Positions 2,683-51,967 of a stretch of 64,000 nucleotides of DNA are shown here, piece by piece. The position numbers and the translations under genes are program-made. Source of the DNA: Dehalococcoidia bacterium (GTDB lineage Bacteria; Chloroflexota; Dehalococcoidia; Lucifugimonadales; Australimonadaceae); assembly GCA_965220655.1 (NCBI GenBank), contig CBDCQO010000012.1, positions 234,441 through 298,440 on the forward strand. The letters run 5' to 3'. Every line of letters starts with the position of its first letter. Position 1 is the stretch's first letter. Below the pieces are notes generated by a model. The model made no database searches, was not told where the DNA came from, and worked only from the letters and a program-made list of their open reading frames with translations.

Positions 2683-3788
2683 CAGCGGTCAACCTCGCCC
2701 ATGTTGAAGTCGAGGCTGCCGAGCGTCACGATGGCGTCCGCCAGCTTCCATCCCACGAGCATCTCCCGGAACAGCGTGAGGCTCATGAAGGACGGGGAGC
2801 GCACGTGGCAGCGGTACGGCGCTATCGTGCCGTCGCTCACCAGGTAGAACCCCAGTTCGCCCTTGGGAGCCTCGATGGGCACGTACGACTCGCCCGGCGG
2901 TGGACGGAACAGCATCGCCATCGTCGTCCGCACCGGCCCCGGCTCGATCTGCTCGCAGCACTGCTCGATGATGCGGAGCGACTGCCGCACCTCCAGCATC
3001 CGCACCCAGAACCGGTCGTAGTTGTCGCCGCCCTCGCACGTCGGCACGTCGAACTCGACGCGGTCGTAGACGTCGTAGGGCGCCGCCTTGCGCCAGTCCC
3101 ACTCGACGCCGGACGCCCGCAGGATGGGGCCCGTGAACGACGCCGCAACGGCGTCCTCCGCTGAGACCGGCGCGACCCCTATCGCGCGGCTCCGCACGAT
3201 CTCGCTGTCGAAGACCAGCGCCTGCAGCTCGTCGGCATAGCCCGGCATGTCGTTCAGGAAGGAGCGCAGCGCGGGCCAGAACTCGTCCGGCGCGTCCTGC
3301 AGCACGCCCCCGATGCGCATGTAGGAGAGCGTGATGCGCGCACCGCACAGCATCTCGAACATGTCCAGGATGCGCTCGCGCTCACGGAACGCGTACATCA
3401 GCGCCGTTCCCCCGAACACGCCGAGTTCCTGCAGGAAGAACCCCACGCCGATGAGGTGGCTCGCGATGCGCTGCAGCTCCGCGGCGATGACGCGCAGGTA
3501 CATCCCGCGCTCGGGAGGATCGATGCCCACCAGACGCTCGCACGAGAGCACGTACGCCTGGTTGTTCGTCATCGACGCGACGTAGTCCAGCCGGTCGGTG
3601 AGCGTGATGACCTGTGTGTACTGCCGCTCCTCCGCCAGCTTCTCCGTGCCCCGGTGCAGGTAGCCGATGACCGGCTCGGCGTCGAGGATGTTCTCCCCGT
3701 CGAACGTCAGTTTCATGCGGAACACGCCGTGAGTGCTGGGGTGATGCGGCCCCACGTTGACGACGACCGGCTCGGTGCGCATCGTCAT
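2682..3788 (-). CDS. nuoD: NADH-quinone oxidoreductase subunit D
   Basis: ATG at 3788..3786, 2 nt after the nuoC stop. Signatures NVGPHHPSTHGVFR, YLHRGTEKLAE, RCHVRSPSF. The stop overlaps the nuoH start (ATGA at 2682), leaving no room for nuoEFG. Confidence 0.93.
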   Translation of the reverse strand: MTMRTEPVVVNVGPHHPSTHGVFRMKLTFDGENILDAEPVIGYLHRGTEKLAEERQYTQVITLTDRLDYVASMTNNQAYVLSCERLVGIDPPERGMYLRVIAAELQRIASHLIGVGFFLQELGVFGGTALMYAFRERERILDMFEMLCGARITLSYMRIGGVLQDAPDEFWPALRSFLNDMPGYADELQALVFDSEIVRSRAIGVAPVSAEDAVAASFTGPILRASGVEWDWRKAAPYDVYDRVEFDVPTCEGGDNYDRFWVRMLEVRQSLRIIEQCCEQIEPGPVRTTMAMLFRPPPGESYVPIEAPKGELGFYLVSDGTIAPYRCHVRSPSFMSLTLFREMLVGWKLADAIVTLGSLDFNMGEVDR

Positions 3789-44884: not shown

Positions 44885-45610
44885 CTACCGCACCAGCAGC
44901 GAGATGGCCGCGGCGACGATGACGATCTCGACGATGTAGACGAATGCCTTGTCGGAGACGCGGTTGGTGATGGCGCCGCCGACGTACGCGCCCGCGACCA
45001 TGACGAGGCCAAGCGAGAGGGCGAGGAGCAGGGCGCTCGTGTCGACCAGGGCGAACGAGCCGTAGATGCCTATCTTGACGACGTTGATGATGGTCATGCC
45101 TGAGGCCATGGTGCCGACGAACGCGCCGCGCCGGAGGCCGTAGGCGAGGAAGAACGATGCGCCGAACGGCCCCGCGCCGCCGAAGAGCGAGGAGAGGAAA
45201 CCCTGTCCCGCGCCAACGCCGACGAACGCCCGGGGGCTCATCCCCGCTCCTCTGGACGCCAGCGGGGTGTGCCGGAACACGACGATGAGCAGCAGGAAGA
45301 CGGCGAACGCCTTCTGCAGGATGTCTGCGGGGAGGTTGGCGAACGCCGTCGCGCCGACGATGGAGGTCGGAAGGGCGCCGATGAAGAACCACTTGACCAC
45401 GCTGCGGTCGATGAGGTGGCGGTTCACCCATATGCGCGACCAGGTCTGCATCATGACGGCGATGGTGGCGATGGGGACGGCCTCGCGGATGCCGACGGCG
45501 AACGTGAGCACGGGGATCATGATGATGGCGGAGCCGAGTCCCGCGAGCCCGCCGATGACCGCGGAGAAGAACGCGACGACGCCGAGCCCTACGAGGACGA
45601 CCGGGTCCAT
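44885..45610 (-). CDS. TauE/SafE-family anion exporter
   Basis: ATG at 45610..45608. 241 aa, ~8 hydrophobic segments, with the GGLAGLGSAIIMIPVL and GGAGPFGASFF repeats typical of the family. The upstream part of track ORF 44885..46120 is rejected. Confidence 0.82.
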   Translation of the reverse strand: MDPVVLVGLGVVAFFSAVIGGLAGLGSAIIMIPVLTFAVGIREAVPIATIAVMMQTWSRIWVNRHLIDRSVVKWFFIGALPTSIVGATAFANLPADILQKAFAVFLLLIVVFRHTPLASRGAGMSPRAFVGVGAGQGFLSSLFGGAGPFGASFFLAYGLRRGAFVGTMASGMTIINVVKIGIYGSFALVDTSALLLALSLGLVMVAGAYVGGAITNRVSDKAFVYIVEIVIVAAAISLLVR

Positions 45611-45612
45611 CG

Positions 45613-46353
45613 CTATCCCGTCGCCAAGAGCAGGAGGCCGGAGACGACCATGAAGAACTCCACGGCGTAGATGAAGAGGCGTTCCGGCACGTGCTTGACG
45701 ATGTGGGCGCCGGCGTACGCGCCCACGGCCATTATGAGGCCGATGCCGACGGCGATGAGGAACGTCTCCATCGTGAAGAGCGAGAAACCGCCGTAGACCA
45801 CCGTCTTGACGATGCTGACGAGGAACGTGCCGACAGCGACGGTGCCGACGAAGGCGTTCTTCGTGAGGCCGTAGGCCATGAAGAAGTGCGCGCCGAATGG
45901 CCCTGCGCCGCCGAAGAGAGCGGAGAAGAAGCCCTGGCCGATGCCGACGGGCAGAAAGGCGCGGAGGGGCATCGCGCGCCCCGCAACGAGGGGTATGTGG
46001 CGGTAGACGACGAGCGCGAGCAGGAAGACGCCGAGCCCTCGCGCAAGCCAGTCGGTGGGGATGTTCGCGAAGACGACGCCCCCGAGCGCGGCGGCGGGCA
46101 CCGCGCCGAGGCTGTACCAACGGGCGACGCGCCAGTCCACGTAGTCGCGGTTCGCGACGGAGCGCGAGAGCGTGTTGAGCAGCATCGCTACGGTGACGAT
46201 GGGGACGGCGAGGCGGATGCCGAACGCGAAGATGAGGATGGGGATGGCGATGATGCCGGTGCTCATGCCGGTGACGCCGCCGATGAGCGCGGCTATCAGC
46301 GATGTCGCGACGACCGCCGCGGCGACCGGCGCGCTGATATCCACATCCAGCAT
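45613..46353 (-). CDS. TauE/SafE-family anion exporter (tandem paralogue)
   Basis: Track ORF of 246 aa. GGVTGMSTGIIAIPIL and GGAGPFGAHFF. It stops 2 nt before the downstream paralogue's ATG. Confidence 0.82.
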   Translation of the reverse strand: MLDVDISAPVAAAVVATSLIAALIGGVTGMSTGIIAIPILIFAFGIRLAVPIVTVAMLLNTLSRSVANRDYVDWRVARWYSLGAVPAAALGGVVFANIPTDWLARGLGVFLLALVVYRHIPLVAGRAMPLRAFLPVGIGQGFFSALFGGAGPFGAHFFMAYGLTKNAFVGTVAVGTFLVSIVKTVVYGGFSLFTMETFLIAVGIGLIMAVGAYAGAHIVKHVPERLFIYAVEFFMVVSGLLLLATG

Positions 46354-48135: not shown

Positions 48136-49539
48136 TTAGTTCAGTTCCCGCACGTCCACGAAGTGCCCAGCGATAGCGGCTGCGGCTGCCATCGGCGGGC
48201 TGACGAGGTGCGTGCGCCCGCCCGGGCCCTGCCGCCCCTCGAAGTTGCGGTTGGAGGTCGAGGCGCTGCGCTCGCCGGGGGCGAGCCGGTCGGGGTTCAT
48301 GGCGAGGCACATGGAGCATCCAGCGTCACGCCACTCGAACCCGGCTTCGGTGAAGACCTGATCGAGTCCCTCCTCCTCCGCCTGCTGCTTCACAGCCCAT
48401 GAGCCGGGGACGACGAGCGCCCGGACCCTGTCAGCCTTCTGCTTACCCTTCGCGACCGCGGCGGCGGCGCGGAGGTCCTCGATGCGGGAGTTGGTGCAGG
48501 AGCCGATGAAGACCGTGTCAACTGCGATGTCCTGGATGCGCTCGCCGCCGTTCAGGCCCATGTACGCGAGCGCCTTCTCCACGGCGCCCTGCTCCTGCGA
48601 CGACTCGAACTCGTCCGGCTTCGGGACGCGCCCTCCAACGGGAAGCACCTGCGCGGGGTTCGTGCCCCACGTTACCTGGGGTTGGATGTCGGCGGCGTTC
48701 AGCGTGACGACGGTGTCGAACGTCGCGCCGGGGTCGGTGCGGAGGGCCGTCCAGTGCTCGACGGCCGCGTCCCAGTCCTCGCCCTTCGGGGCGTACTCGC
48801 GCCCCTTCAGGTAGGCGAACGTCGTCTCGTCGGGCGCGACCATGCCGGTGCGCGCGCCCGCCTCGATGGACATGTTGCAGACCGTCATGCGGCCTTCCAT
48901 GGACATCTCGCGGAAGACGGAGCCGGTGTACTCGATGGCGTGGCCGATGCCGCCGGACGTACCGATCTTGCCGATGATGGCGAGTATGACGTCCTTGGGC
49001 GTCACGCCGAAGCCGAGCGTGCCGTCCACGCGGACCTCCATCGTCTTCGGCTTCGCCTGCCAGATGCACTGCGTCGCCAGGACGTGCTCGACCTCCGACG
49101 TGCCGATGCCGAACGCCATCGCGCCGACCGCGCCGTGCGTCGCGGTGTGGCTGTCGCCGCAGACGATGATCATGCCGGGCTGCGTGCGCCCCTGCTCCGG
49201 CCCGATGACGTGGACGATGCCCTGCTTCTCGCTGAACATGTCGTGGTACTCGAGGCCGAACTCATCCGCGTTGCGCTGCATGGCTTCGAGTTGCGCCTTC
49301 GAGACCTCGTCCGTGAGGGGCTTGTCGCGGTCGTTGGTGGGGACGTTGTGGTCGGCGACGGCGACGGTCTTGTCGAGCCTGCGGATGCGGCGGTTGTTGA
49401 GGCGCAGGCCGTCGAACGCCTGGGGCGACGTGACCTCGTGGACGAGGTGCAGGTCGACGTAGAGCAGGGAGGGCTTGCCCTCCTCCTCCTGCACGACGTG
49501 CGCGTCCCATATCTTCTCGAACATCGTCTTGGGGGCCAT
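48136..49539 (-). CDS. leuC: 3-isopropylmalate dehydratase large subunit
   Basis: Track ORF of 467 aa. Aconitase-family motifs [31 protein letters not shown]. Confidence 0.95.
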
Positions 49540-49557
49540 CTGATCCTCCGCTTCTCT

Positions 49558-49704
49558 TCAGACGGCGAAATCGTCCAGGACCAGGCAGGGGAGGTTGCAG
49601 TTCCTGGCGAATGCGCGGTCGTTGCCGGTGATGACGTCGCAGCGGTCAGCCGCGGCGGTCGCTGCGATGATAGCACTCGACGCCTTCAAGTTGGTGGAGG
49701 AGCC
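49558..49704 (-). pseudogene. C-terminal PIN-domain (VapC-like) fragment, in frame directly after the TAA of 49705..50229
   Basis: My own translation gives GSSTNLKASSAIIAATAAADRCDVITGNDRAFARNCNLPCLVLDDFAV*. It resembles the D.lIAAtA...lvT.D..F end of PIN toxins, with Ser at the Asp position. No start codon of its own. Confidence 0.55.
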
Positions 49705-50229
49705 TTACGAGGCGGCCTTGAGCGAAGCCGCGATCTCGCCGTCCAGGCGGTAGCGCTCCGGCTCCTCGTCCTGCGCCGGGATGCGCCGCACCCAGCGGCT
49801 GGCAGTGAGCCTCTCCAGCGTTTGGGTCAGGTCGGTCGGGTGGCCGTTCTCGGGGATGAGCCACGCCAGGTCCGGGAAGGTGGCCACGTAGTACGGGCAG
49901 TCCATAAGCGTGTCGGCGACTGCCCGCACGCCGCTGTCCGTGGCGTACAGGTCTTCGAACCGCTTGCGCCACTCGCGCGGGTCAGTTTCGCCGGGGAGTC
50001 CGGACGCAGGCTCTGTCCTACTCTGGCGCCGGAGAAGGCTCTCTTCGGTGTCAGCTTCCGGCCTGCCACGCCGGAGATACTGCATCCAGTCCTCCGGCTC
50101 CTTCATCAGCACGATGTCTCCGTCCACGACGGCTGCCGCCAATCTGTCCCCATGGTTGATGCCCACCTCCCGAAGGATGGCGACGGGTATGGTGACCTGG
50201 TTCTTGCTGCTGACGGTTATCGTGCGCAT
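49705..50229 (-). CDS. AbrB/SpoVT-type (VapB-like) antitoxin domain fused to a degenerate PIN-like N-terminal half
   Basis: Track ORF of 174 aa. KNQVTIPVAILREVGINHGDRL is a swapped-hairpin AbrB motif. Residues ~90-174 (LYATDSGV...RIPAQDEEPERYRLDGEIAASL) align by eye with the first two-thirds of a PIN domain. Confidence 0.65.
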   Translation of the reverse strand: MRTITVSSKNQVTIPVAILREVGINHGDRLAAAVVDGDIVLMKEPEDWMQYLRRGRPEADTEESLLRRQSRTEPASGLPGETDPREWRKRFEDLYATDSGVRAVADTLMDCPYYVATFPDLAWLIPENGHPTDLTQTLERLTASRWVRRIPAQDEEPERYRLDGEIAASLKAAS

Positions 50230-50244
50230 GGCGAACCTCGGATA

Positions 50245-50285
50245 CTTGGTATTTCTTACTTACCAGATAAGTAAAGTATACCAAG
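50245..50285. promoter_or_regulatory. AT-rich 41-bp imperfect palindrome (candidate antitoxin operator) overlapping a TTGACC promoter
   Basis: cttggtat-ttc-ttactta-ccaga-taagtaa-agt-ataccaag. G+C is 21/60 at 50241..50300. On the minus strand: TTGACC (50297..50292) - 16 nt - TTTACT (50275..50270). Confidence 0.55.
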
Positions 50286-50302
50286 CAAACTGGTCAACTC
50301 CT

Positions 50303-50339
50303 CATACAAAGAGGCAGAGGAGATAGCCCCTCTGCCTCT
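50303..50339 (-). terminator. Intrinsic terminator-like hairpin downstream of leuA
   Basis: Minus strand: AGAGGCAGAGG-GGCTATCT-CCTCTGCCTCT (perfect 11-bp stem) followed by TTTGTAT. It lies 30 nt after the leuA stop. Confidence 0.6.
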
Positions 50340-50368
50340 TCGCCATGCTCCCGGTGAGGCTGCTACCG

Positions 50369-51919
50369 TTAGACGGCGCCTGCCGCCTCCGGTGAGCGGG
50401 TGGTGTCGCCCATCGCGAGCAGGCGGTTGAGCGCGTTCATGTAGGCCTGGGCGCACGCGACGATGATGTCCGTATCCGCGCCGCGTCCGATGTACGGCTT
50501 GCCGTCCTGTTCGATGCGGATGCTCACCTCGCCGATGGCGTCGATGCCCTCCGTGACCGAGTTGACGCTGAACTCCGTCAGCTCGTTCGGCACGCCGACG
50601 ATGCGGTTGATGGCCTGGTAGACGGCGTCCACCGGCCCGGTGCCTGTCGCCGCATCAGTGCGGACCGTCCCGTCTTCGAGGGACAGTTGGACGGTTGCGG
50701 TCGGAATCTCGCCGGTGCCGCAGGTCACCTGCACGTGCTCCAGCGAGTACGTCTCCTCGATGGCCGTGCGCTCGTTGCCCATGAGCGCGATGAGGTCGCG
50801 GTCGGTCACCTCGCGCTTCTTGTCCGCGAGCTCCTTGAAGGACTCGTGCACCTTGTCGAGCTCCTCGTTGGTGAGCGCGTAGCCCAGCTCTTCGAGCCGT
50901 GAGCGCAGGCCGTGGCGTCCGCTCAGTTTGCCGAGCACGAGTTCGCTCCGGGGCACCCCCACGTCCAGCGGGTTCAGGATCTCGTAGGTGGTGCGCTCCT
51001 TCAGCACGCCGTCCTGGTGGATGCCGGAGGCGTGCCGGAACGCGTTGCGCCCGATGACGGCCTTGTTGGGCTGCACCGGGAAGCCGCTCACCTGGCTCAC
51101 GAGGCGGCTGGTGTTGTACAGCTGCTTCGTGTCGATCTCGGTGTCGACGCCGAAGTAGTCGCCGCGCGTGCGGAGCGCCATGATGACTTCCTCGACGGCG
51201 GTGTTGCCCGCGCGCTCGCCGATGCCGTTGATGCAGCCCTCAACCTGGCGGGCCCCCGCCTTCACCGCCGAGAGGCTGTTGGCGACCGACATGCCCAGGT
51301 CGTCGTGGCAGTGCACGGAGATGCGGACGCTGTCGCCCAGCTCCGGCACCTCGGCACGCAGGTAGGTGATGAGGCCGCCGAACTCCTCCGGCACCGCGTA
51401 GCCGACCGTGTCCGGGATGTTGATGGTCGTTGCGCCCGCGTCGACGGCCGCCCGCACCATGTGCGCGAGGAACTCGCGCTCCGTGCGGCTGGAGTCCATG
51501 GGGGAGAACTCCACGTCGTCGGTGTACTCGCGCGCCCGCGAGACGGCTTTCACCGCGATCTCCACCACCTCTTCCCTGTTCTTGCGCAGCTGATGCTGGA
51601 TGTGCTGGTCCGAGGAAGAGATGAAGATGTGGATGCGCGGGTGCGCCGCGTCCTTCAGCGCCTCGCCGGCTCTGTCCACCGCAGCCTCGTTCGCATGCGC
51701 GAGCGCCGCGATGATCGGCTTCCGCACCTCGCGCGCGATTGTCTGCACCGCCTCGAAGTCGCCGGGCGAACTGACGGGGAAGCCCGCCTCGATGATGTCG
51801 ACGTTCAGCCGCTCGAGCTGCCTGGCGATCTCCACCTTCTCGTCCACTGTCATCCCCGCCCCGGCGGACTGCTCTCCGTCCCGGAGCGTGGTGTCGAAGA
51901 TGAGCACTCGGTCTTCCAT
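50369..51919 (-). CDS. leuA: 2-isopropylmalate synthase
   Basis: ATG at 51919..51917 with GGAGGA 5 nt upstream (the track ORF starts at TTG 51934). IFDTTLRDGEQ, HCHDDLGM, and a C-terminal LeuA regulatory domain. Confidence 0.95.
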   Translation of the reverse strand: MEDRVLIFDTTLRDGEQSAGAGMTVDEKVEIARQLERLNVDIIEAGFPVSSPGDFEAVQTIAREVRKPIIAALAHANEAAVDRAGEALKDAAHPRIHIFISSSDQHIQHQLRKNREEVVEIAVKAVSRAREYTDDVEFSPMDSSRTEREFLAHMVRAAVDAGATTINIPDTVGYAVPEEFGGLITYLRAEVPELGDSVRISVHCHDDLGMSVANSLSAVKAGARQVEGCINGIGERAGNTAVEEVIMALRTRGDYFGVDTEIDTKQLYNTSRLVSQVSGFPVQPNKAVIGRNAFRHASGIHQDGVLKERTTYEILNPLDVGVPRSELVLGKLSGRHGLRSRLEELGYALTNEELDKVHESFKELADKKREVTDRDLIALMGNERTAIEETYSLEHVQVTCGTGEIPTATVQLSLEDGTVRTDAATGTGPVDAVYQAINRIVGVPNELTEFSVNSVTEGIDAIGEVSIRIEQDGKPYIGRGADTDIIVACAQAYMNALNRLLAMGDTTRSPEAAGAV

Positions 51920-51967
51920 GTCATTCCTCCGCAAACAGGCCGCTCACGGCCTCCGCTGTGCCGGCGG

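Follow-up and report, generated by a model that had tools for sequence, protein, structure and literature searches.

VapBC toxin–antitoxin systems with an AbrB-type VapB, as described from enteric bacteria and Rickettsia (solved VapC, 7by2), consist of an antitoxin gene lying immediately upstream of, and overlapping, a gene for a PIN-domain toxin, and a palindromic operator overlaps their promoter. VapB14 of Sulfolobus is bifunctional and provides an example of an orphan or domesticated antitoxin acting as a transcription factor (PMC10127717). Here, we describe a cassette with the VapBC order of parts in a 64,000-nucleotide (nt) stretch of a Dehalococcoidia genome (contig CBDCQO010000012.1; hereafter the window). 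The whole locus lies on the minus strand, with leuA as the upstream flank and leuC as the downstream flank of the cassette. A first-pass annotation of the window had read it as a vapBC-type cassette (AbrB antitoxin and PIN toxin) with a dead toxin, and this was borne out by using the intact PIN genes of relatives as a reference. Comparison of the loci indicates that the toxin was deleted and that the antitoxin, its promoter and operator, and the 3′ end of the toxin gene were kept, probably because these parts aid the expression of the leucine genes.

The antitoxin gene and the toxin remnant

The antitoxin gene, ORF174 (49705..50229, minus strand), consists of 174 codons and a TAA stop. A homologue search covering 5.8 billion proteins returned 22 homologues with 45–98% identity, nearly all full length (174–187 amino acids, aa) and from Chloroflexota/Dehalococcoidia assemblies. 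The family aligned end to end, with invariant residues in the N-terminal domain and the C-terminal half alike. Full-length homologues of 174–188 aa (one of 245 aa), down to ~32% identity, showed a uniform architecture followed by a separate, overlapping PIN gene. On this family alignment, ORF174 is a complete and intact antitoxin of a small Dehalococcoidia/SAR202 family, not a fusion.

Residues 5–48 (50086..50217, minus strand) form an AbrB/MazE/SpoVT swapped-hairpin DNA-binding domain (PF04014, 29.4 bits; cut-off, 24.7), in agreement with the first-pass assignment of the first ~50 aa. In a Foldseek search against the PDB, this domain matched the N-domain of AbrB (1yfb) with a root mean square deviation (rmsd) of 1.8 over 43 columns. 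The TIGR01439 score of the window protein was below the cut-off (23.6 versus 28.3), whereas that of L010, one of the compared loci (cited by L numbers), was just above it (28.6). Neither the antitoxin nor the intact PIN matched a defense system or a named family in PADLOC and NCBIfam, the AbrB domain excepted. AlphaFold2, run on the family alignment (mean predicted local distance difference test score [pLDDT], 72), predicted an AbrB-like N-domain, a disordered stretch, and a compact C-domain. The stretch corresponds to a degraded linker (residues 49–82; 49984..50085, minus strand), the probable former toxin-binding segment, which carries a 21-nt deletion and many substitutions and in which residues 53–81 had pLDDT values below 50. 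In L088 (2289-3026, protein P0024), a distant family member, the antitoxin is 245 aa long, and ~65 residues inserted in its linker look like a repetition of part of that linker (..AEERASWEASPP.. and ..AEEGTAWETTP..), which would fit a modular, disordered toxin-binding segment.

The C-domain (residues 83–174; 49708..49983, minus strand) was predicted to be winged-helix-like, in the order helix-helix-strand-helix-helix-strand-strand-helix. Foldseek against the PDB matched it to ArsR/SmtB, MarR, and HxlR winged-helix regulators (probability, 1.0; E ~6e-3), the best example being SqrR (6o8l; target-normalized template modeling [TM] score, 0.73; rmsd, 1.9), and BigR (3pqj) was also matched. The resemblance appears to be at the fold level only because topology and Foldseek agree but no Pfam profile, including those of winged-helix families, matched at E ≤ 10. 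A sequence search of 1.84 billion representatives matched the C-domain to no more than 6 clusters, so it is nearly unique to this cassette, and the full-length members have the three-part architecture. The first-pass annotation had aligned this half by eye to the first two-thirds of a PIN domain; BLASTP against the intact PIN found no similarity (E = 6.4 over 3 residues).

In 17 of the 25 compared loci, the antitoxin gene is followed by an intact, overlapping PIN gene of 150 aa, and the cassette lies directly upstream of leuC wherever the contig extends far enough (the contigs of L091-L093 end before leuC could be shown). Loci with an intact PIN gene and the cassette between leuA and leuC were L001, L002, L005, L010, L012-16, L018-21, L023-24, and L088. 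In L001, L002, and L005, the ATG of the separate 150-aa PIN gene overlaps the antitoxin stop, and leuC follows ~20 nt after the PIN gene. This overlap reads TGATG or TAATG in all PIN-bearing relatives and was destroyed by the deletion in the window. A species-level scan with one genome per species yielded 19 further Dehalococcoidia/SAR202 genomes with a full-length antitoxin gene, all directly upstream of leuC, and 14 of the 19 have an intact PIN. The intact proteins scored 52–58 bits against PF01850 and matched the solved VapC 7by2, and we regard the toxin of the relatives as a bona fide PIN by sequence. The four conserved acidic residues of a VapBC PIN toxin are present in the relatives but incomplete in the window.

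Past the TAA (49705-49707), 48 more codons and a TGA (147 nt; 49558..49704, minus strand) are in frame with ORF174. The first-pass annotation had recognized them as a PIN C-terminus with Ser at a conserved Asp, and both statements held: the remnant is 83% identical to residues 103–150 of the intact 150-aa PIN (tblastn E = 3e-14), and KASSAII replaces the intact KAPDAII (Asp112 to Ser). Its Pfam PIN match was weak (E = 0.03-0.05; 14.8–15.3 bits versus a cut-off of 23.6; profile positions 87–117 of 120). The distance to leuC is 171 nt in the window versus 473 nt in intact loci; therefore, ~302 nt are missing. DNA alignments placed the junction at 49701..49712 (minus strand), where an extra Ser codon and the TAA were created. 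PIN codons 1 to ~102 were lost in this deletion, and with them the N-terminal Asp and Glu, which belong to the catalytic set of four acidic residues. The lesion is thus a single deletion, in place of the loss of reading-frame continuity proposed earlier.

Including the window, eight independent assemblies are toxin-less (the others being L006, L007, L008, L009, L011, L017, and L022). The antitoxin of L006 is 98% identical to that of the window, and the antitoxin of L007, a TARA Oceans scaffold, is 84% identical. The window-type junction, with the extra Ser codon before the stop, is common to L006, L007, L008, L009, L011, and L017. L022 has a different junction, retaining the original stop and the PIN from about codon 96. 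The remnant frame is broken by a 1-nt deletion in L009, a 1-nt insertion in L011, and a further ~40-nt (37–41 nt) deletion in L017. In a neighbor-joining leuC tree, which was star-like, the toxin-less genomes were scattered among toxin-bearing ones. The L009 antitoxin gene (3001-3546) is a mosaic: codons 1–82 have 92–94% nucleotide identity to PIN-bearing L012 and L020, and codons 83–174 are 97.8% identical to toxin-less L008. This pattern points to homologous recombination of alleles across species boundaries, by which the deletion allele moves. Because toxin-less genomes are scattered and alleles are mosaic, deletion events cannot be counted from the leuC tree; the two junction types are firm in the alignments, and there were at least two deletion events. 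In L006 (3691-5092), the closest relative, leuC was called as three open reading frames (ORFs; 217, 75, and 179 aa), most likely a product of frameshift errors, the assembly having low coverage (11x), rather than a genuine pseudogene.

Selection after toxin loss

The ratios of nonsynonymous to synonymous substitution rates (dN/dS) were calculated by region with the Nei-Gojobori method. In PIN-bearing pairs, dN/dS was 0.11 for the AbrB domain, 0.10 for the linker, and 0.25 for the C-domain, compared with 0.15, 0.78, and 0.19, respectively, in toxin-less pairs. Within the window clade, values for the AbrB domain ranged from 0.04 to 0.16, and those for the C-domain without toxin ranged from 0.07 to 0.19. 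The window and L007 have the toxin deletion and the 21-nt (7-aa) linker deletion in common, so their entire divergence post-dates toxin loss; for this pair, dN/dS was 0.04, 0.71, and 0.16 for the AbrB domain, linker, and C-domain, respectively. Nonsynonymous to synonymous differences between them were 24.5:10.5 in the linker versus 14:33 elsewhere (Fisher p = 3e-4), and this contrast was absent in four PIN-bearing pairs. The linker motif W-V-x-Y-F-x-G-S-M-K-G-x-Y-G...D-R-Y-V...E-R...S-W is kept in PIN-bearing loci, even in members whose C-domain is only 36–50% identical, and is degraded in the window clade and in L022, which has an independent toxin deletion. By these ratios, the AbrB and C-domains are under purifying selection after toxin loss, and the antitoxin is not decaying; only its linker is relaxed. 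Relaxation once the toxin was lost marks the linker as the probable toxin-neutralizing or toxin-binding segment, and the two folded domains appear to have a function that is independent of the toxin.

The remaining toxin sequence is also constrained. Among intact PIN genes, divergence at four-fold sites fell from 0.25–0.33 in codons 1–75 to 0.088 in codons 126–150, compared with 0.25 in leuA/leuC, and among 189 sliding 25-codon windows of these two genes, 0.088 lies at the 0.5th percentile. Toxin-less lineages differed at 5–13% of the 120–162 aligned nt before the leuC start versus 16–33% of flanking four-fold sites, and all 21 toxin-less pairs were significant (p = 9e-4 to 6e-11). Between the window and L007, the remnant differed by 9.9% versus 27.3% at flanking four-fold sites, and the antitoxin dS was 0.34–0.69. 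In these alignments, the remnant evolves 2-4x slower than flanking four-fold sites, though it is non-coding in several lineages. Conservation within the remnant singled out TGCTATCAT (49667..49675, minus strand, read on the mRNA strand), an extended −10-like motif and candidate internal promoter of leuCDB. All aligned loci, and L088 as well, have GCTATCAT without any change. The GAT before GCTATCAT is kept in every PIN-bearing locus and reads AGT or GGT in several toxin-less ones. The TGCTATCAT/GCTATCAT motif is built of GAT and GCT, rare codons that each make up ~6% of their codon family in neighboring genes.

Promoter, putative operator, and possible role at leuCDB

The leuA–antitoxin spacers of 25 loci were aligned. 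A −35 box, TTGACC (50292..50297, minus strand), is kept as TTGAC(C/A/T) in nearly all aligned loci and in distant L091 and L092. The −10 region (50268..50275, minus strand) can be read as TTTACT (50270-50275) at a 16-nt spacing or TACTTA at an 18-nt spacing, and relatives have TAC(C/T/A)AT at 17 nt. It is overlapped by a 41-bp imperfect palindrome (50245..50285, minus strand), a putative AbrB operator with 18-nt arms that are 83% complementary (outer CTTGG..CCAAG, inner CTTTAC..GTAAG). Both elements were found as the first-pass annotation had given them. The palindrome occurs once in the window (matches expected by chance, 0), and its arms are conserved across main-clade loci, toxin-less ones included. 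In the main clade, the promoter side of the plan reads TTGAC(C/A), then CTGCTTGG, four variable bases, CTTTAC, and a variable center. The gene side reads GTAAG, a few variable bases, and ACCAAGCAG, then CCGAGG and the ATG. CCGAGG (50236..50241, minus strand) is the antitoxin ribosome-binding site, present as CCGAGG or TCGAGG 6–7 nt before the ATG in most aligned loci and divergent in the outliers L005, L025, and L026.

A scan for sigma-70-like consensus sequences found TTGACC-17-TACCAT in L010 and TTGACC-17-TACTAT in L012; the distant members have TTGACC-17-TACAAT (L091) and TTGACT-17-TACTAT (L092), with the GCTTGG-N4-CTTTAC unit as direct repeats in both. From this conservation, the ancestral promoter is TTGACC-N17-TACnAT overlapped by a nested palindrome. 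The sequence elements of VapBC control, a promoter with a palindromic operator, are thus present and conserved, and autoregulation is predicted from them.

The spacer upstream of the antitoxin is variable among L010, L016, L022, and L011. The −35 box is duplicated in tandem in L010 and L016 (GGGCTTGACTATAAGGGCTTGACC, about 2905-2935). In L022 (2480-3000), the spacer is 517 nt long, and the promoter and the left arm of the operator recur in it as a second, partial copy; L011 (2803-3000) has two copies of the tandem repeat CAGGCTTGACGATGCT and a poly-C run. In the window, the 139-nt spacer between leuA and ORF174 also holds the perfect hairpin that had been reported after leuA (50309..50340, minus strand). 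It has a 12-bp stem (50309-50320/50329-50340), an 8-nt loop, and the tail TTGTATG, and it folds at −37.5 kcal/mol (z = −3.6 versus shuffles). It is terminator-like, but the tail is a weak U-tract, and a terminator scan flagged only a short inner version. The hairpin lies inside a ~45-nt lineage-specific insertion found only in the window, L006, and L020 among the 25 aligned loci (absent in 22/25); therefore, it is not part of the conserved design, and its earlier designation as the leuA terminator does not extend to the family. It was not found as a dispersed repeat within the window.

The gene order on the minus strand of the window is ilvB, ilvN, ilvC, leuA, cassette, leuC, leuD, leuB, and tauE. 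The leuA gene (2-isopropylmalate synthase; 50369..51934, minus strand) is 95–99% identical to main-clade leuA, the products of which have HMGL-like/LeuA_dimer Pfam domains. As the first-pass annotation had it, leuC (48136..49539, minus strand) begins 18 nt past the remnant TGA with its own GGAGGA ribosome-binding site (49544..49549, minus strand), which was seen in the sequence and the alignment. No terminator separates it from the leuD, leuB, and tauE genes that come next. After leuB there is a tandem pair of genes for TauE/SafE-type membrane proteins, a sulfite/anion exporter family (window ~44885-46353, minus strand); this pair is also found in most relatives whose locus reaches there and may be co-transcribed with leuCDB.

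The cassette had been taken for an insertion into the operon, and a comparison of leuA–leuC junctions revealed an empty site. In L089 (leuC 85% identical), leuA is followed by an 86-nt C-rich spacer and leuC with no cassette trace, and in L088 (leuC 87% identical) the cassette is present, with the 245-aa antitoxin and a 152-aa PIN. Judged from these loci, the cassette is an old insertion that is chromosomally fixed in a Dehalococcoidia/SAR202 clade. L025 (1-3000) and L026 have the cassette and leuCDB without leuA upstream and with ORFs for a UbiD-like decarboxylase and a periplasmic solute-binding protein instead. Therefore, the stable linkage is that of the cassette to leuCDB, which survives even where the ilv-leu operon is split, and the cassette is the only nearby upstream promoter in these two loci. 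Two further observations concern the leuA side. A second copy of the last ~21 leuA codons lies between leuA and the antitoxin promoter in L003 (554-616) and L004 (1-60), both short metagenome contigs; L002, with the same antitoxin protein, does not have this duplication. A JGI contig (sample 3300072015; leuC 80% identical) has a 328-nt leuA–leuC gap with only a 37-aa ORF inside, which may represent either a cassette remnant in more advanced decay or an unrelated spacer.

We propose that the orphan AbrB–winged-helix protein would bind the palindrome at 50245-50285 and repress its own promoter, and that this repression would set the transcription running on into leuCDB-tauE. Cassette transcripts would continue into these genes because no terminator intervenes and leuC begins 18–20 nt past the cassette. 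The first-pass annotation had likewise suggested that the cassette promoter and palindrome may act on leuCDB, which is plausible from the gene order. The retained toxin 3′ end would carry a cis element needed for leuC expression, for which the best candidate is the internal extended −10 promoter TGCTATCAT with its 5′ untranslated region (UTR). Such an element would account for two independent deletions each ending upstream of it. A stronger version is possible but tentative, namely that the cassette was co-opted in this clade as a promoter and regulator module of leuCDB-tauE, with a dedicated AbrB–winged-helix regulator whose C-domain might sense a metabolite and with the toxin 3′ third providing leuC with a cis element, either an internal promoter or a 5′ UTR. 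Regulatory entanglement of this kind would explain both the persistence of the cassette at its site and the fact that all of the independent toxin deletions leave the antitoxin and ~150 nt at the 3′ end of the toxin gene in place.

Several points weigh against the explanation given here. The regulation of leuCDB by the antitoxin is drawn from gene order, and a paralogous PIN toxin could be encoded outside the 64 kb of genome in view. Because alleles are mosaic, as in the recombinant L009, not every pairwise comparison follows a clean post-deletion path; window–L007 and L007–L008 are the cleanest pairs. The C-domain assignment comes with modest Foldseek E-values (~6e-3) and the AlphaFold2 mean pLDDT of 72. 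A 3-nt deletion, which also occurs in L006, L007, and L022, spoils the TACnAT hexamer; as a result, the −10 of the window is poorer than that of its relatives, and a strict sigma-70 scan made no promoter call there. The window still has TTTACT at 16 nt and the TGGTATACT motif, and its promoter assignment is based on comparative conservation and on the calls in L010 and L012. The candidate internal promoter TGCTATCAT has no recognizable −35, and an Rfam scan of 49300-50500 (E ≤ 10) gave only chance-level microRNA and small nucleolar RNA matches and no T-box, leader, or riboswitch. The minimum free energy of the remnant and leuC leader was no better than that of shuffles (z = −0.2), and a structured-RNA explanation of the remnant was dropped on this result. 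With no −35, Rfam match, or excess structure, TGCTATCAT is treated here as a hypothetical promoter.

Two of the alternative explanations invoke a protein product of the remnant. The first-pass annotation proposed that the vapB stop had been lost, fusing the antitoxin to vapC, and that the TAA might be rescued by read-through into a ~222-aa protein. The remnant is indeed in frame with ORF174 past the TAA, and a profile search of the conceptual read-through protein recovered the AbrB domain (PF04014) and a PIN match; the latter was weak, restricted to residues 170–210, and below the cut-off. That the deletion placed the remnant in this frame by chance explains why a fusion was suggested. However, the relatives have a full-length antitoxin of a conserved family and a separate, overlapping intact PIN, and the C-terminal half has no PIN similarity and a predicted winged-helix fold. 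The antitoxin stops also vary between TAA and TGA, and a conserved read-through product is unlikely, as the remnant has suffered frameshifts in L009 and L011 and truncation in L017. The fusion model is refuted by these sequence comparisons, the conserved 174-aa family being an outcome that the first-pass annotation had itself named as contrary to its claim, and we give read-through almost no weight. It is also quite improbable, though less so, that the remnant owes its conservation to translation as a small protein of ~43–48 aa (e.g., from TTG at 49689). The window, L006, L007, and L008 keep this frame open, and the ratio of nonsynonymous to synonymous differences per site (pN/pS) was 0.26–0.38 in pairs with L007, but it was ~1 for window–L008 and L006–L008, an inconsistent overall range of 0.26 to 1.2. 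The same frame is broken in L009 and L011 and has lost 37–41 nt in L017, the TTG has no preceding ribosome-binding site, and the 48-residue PIN fragment lacks the fold core.

The other two alternatives concern what, if anything, the retained parts are for. Orphan antitoxins with an anti-addiction or cross-neutralizing role have been described in the toxin–antitoxin field, and the antitoxin may have been kept to act on a paralogous PIN elsewhere in the genome or on mobile elements and not to regulate leu genes. The inspection of only 64 kb of the genome leaves room for such a partner. However, the linker, which is conserved in toxin-bearing loci, is exactly the part that decayed (7-aa deletion, dN/dS ~0.7-0.8), no PIN paralogue was found in the window, and the C-domain family occurs only in this cassette (the 6 clusters mentioned above). 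Such a role is therefore unlikely, if the least unlikely of the four alternatives. Only slightly less probable is that no function is left, the antitoxin and remnant being recent leftovers whose conservation reflects a young deletion or hitch-hiking with essential leu genes. Some copies may be young, given that recombination moves the deletion allele (L009), and the ~10% divergence of the remnant resembles that of a constrained coding region. Against this, window and L007 have diverged substantially (dS 0.34–0.69; 27% at four-fold sites), yet the folded-domain dN/dS is 0.04–0.16 and the remnant differs by 9.9%, and the antitoxin ORF is undisrupted in all toxin-less assemblies. The retention of a toxin-deleted cassette that aids leucine-gene expression thus remains the reading we prefer.

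Comparison with known systems

If the preferred reading is correct, a selfish module seems to have become part of how an essential biosynthetic operon is expressed. Should the toxin fragment indeed carry signals for leuC expression, this would provide a concrete mechanism that makes toxin–antitoxin cassettes hard to excise from chromosomes. The annotation of the window is corrected in any case: the 174-aa gene is an intact two-domain regulator/antitoxin, and the next 147 nt are a toxin pseudogene fragment, not part of a frameshifted fusion. The locus also offers a natural experiment on a type II antitoxin after toxin loss, in which a specific ~30-residue linker relaxes and thereby predicts the toxin-binding site without a structure. 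We found no description in the literature of a vapBC cassette in a leu operon or of AbrB–winged-helix antitoxins.

Compared with VapB14 (PMC10127717), the present antitoxin is similar in that its DNA binding may matter beyond toxin neutralization. It differs in that its role is deduced from selection and gene order, its target would be leuCDB-tauE in cis, and its cognate toxin has been physically lost. The predicted fold of residues 84–173 is like that of ArsR/SmtB, MarR, and HxlR regulators (SqrR 6o8l, BigR 3pqj, and CzrA 1r1u; target-normalized TM, 0.6–0.73) in its helices, short strand, recognition helix, and beta wing. Unlike these regulators, it is fused behind an AbrB domain and has no Pfam winged-helix profile match, and no metal or redox ligand residues were identified in it.

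With AbrB-type VapBC, the cassette shares the gene order, the overlap of antitoxin and PIN genes, the putative palindromic operator overlapping the promoter, and, in relatives, a toxin that matches PF01850 and a solved VapC. The differences are that the antitoxin has 174–188 aa (one of 245) versus ~70–90 aa, with an extra winged-helix-like domain after the probable toxin-binding linker; that the cassette occupies one fixed chromosomal site in the ilv-leu operon in at least 19 species-level genomes; and that the toxin of the window is deleted. To judge from the alignments, it is the three-part antitoxin and the fixed position in a biosynthetic operon that set the module apart from described VapBC. 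The locus is a tidy evolutionary case and not a new system: the module is best described as one that works like, and descends from, type II VapBC, and the window copy as a toxin-deleted derivative with an orphan antitoxin.

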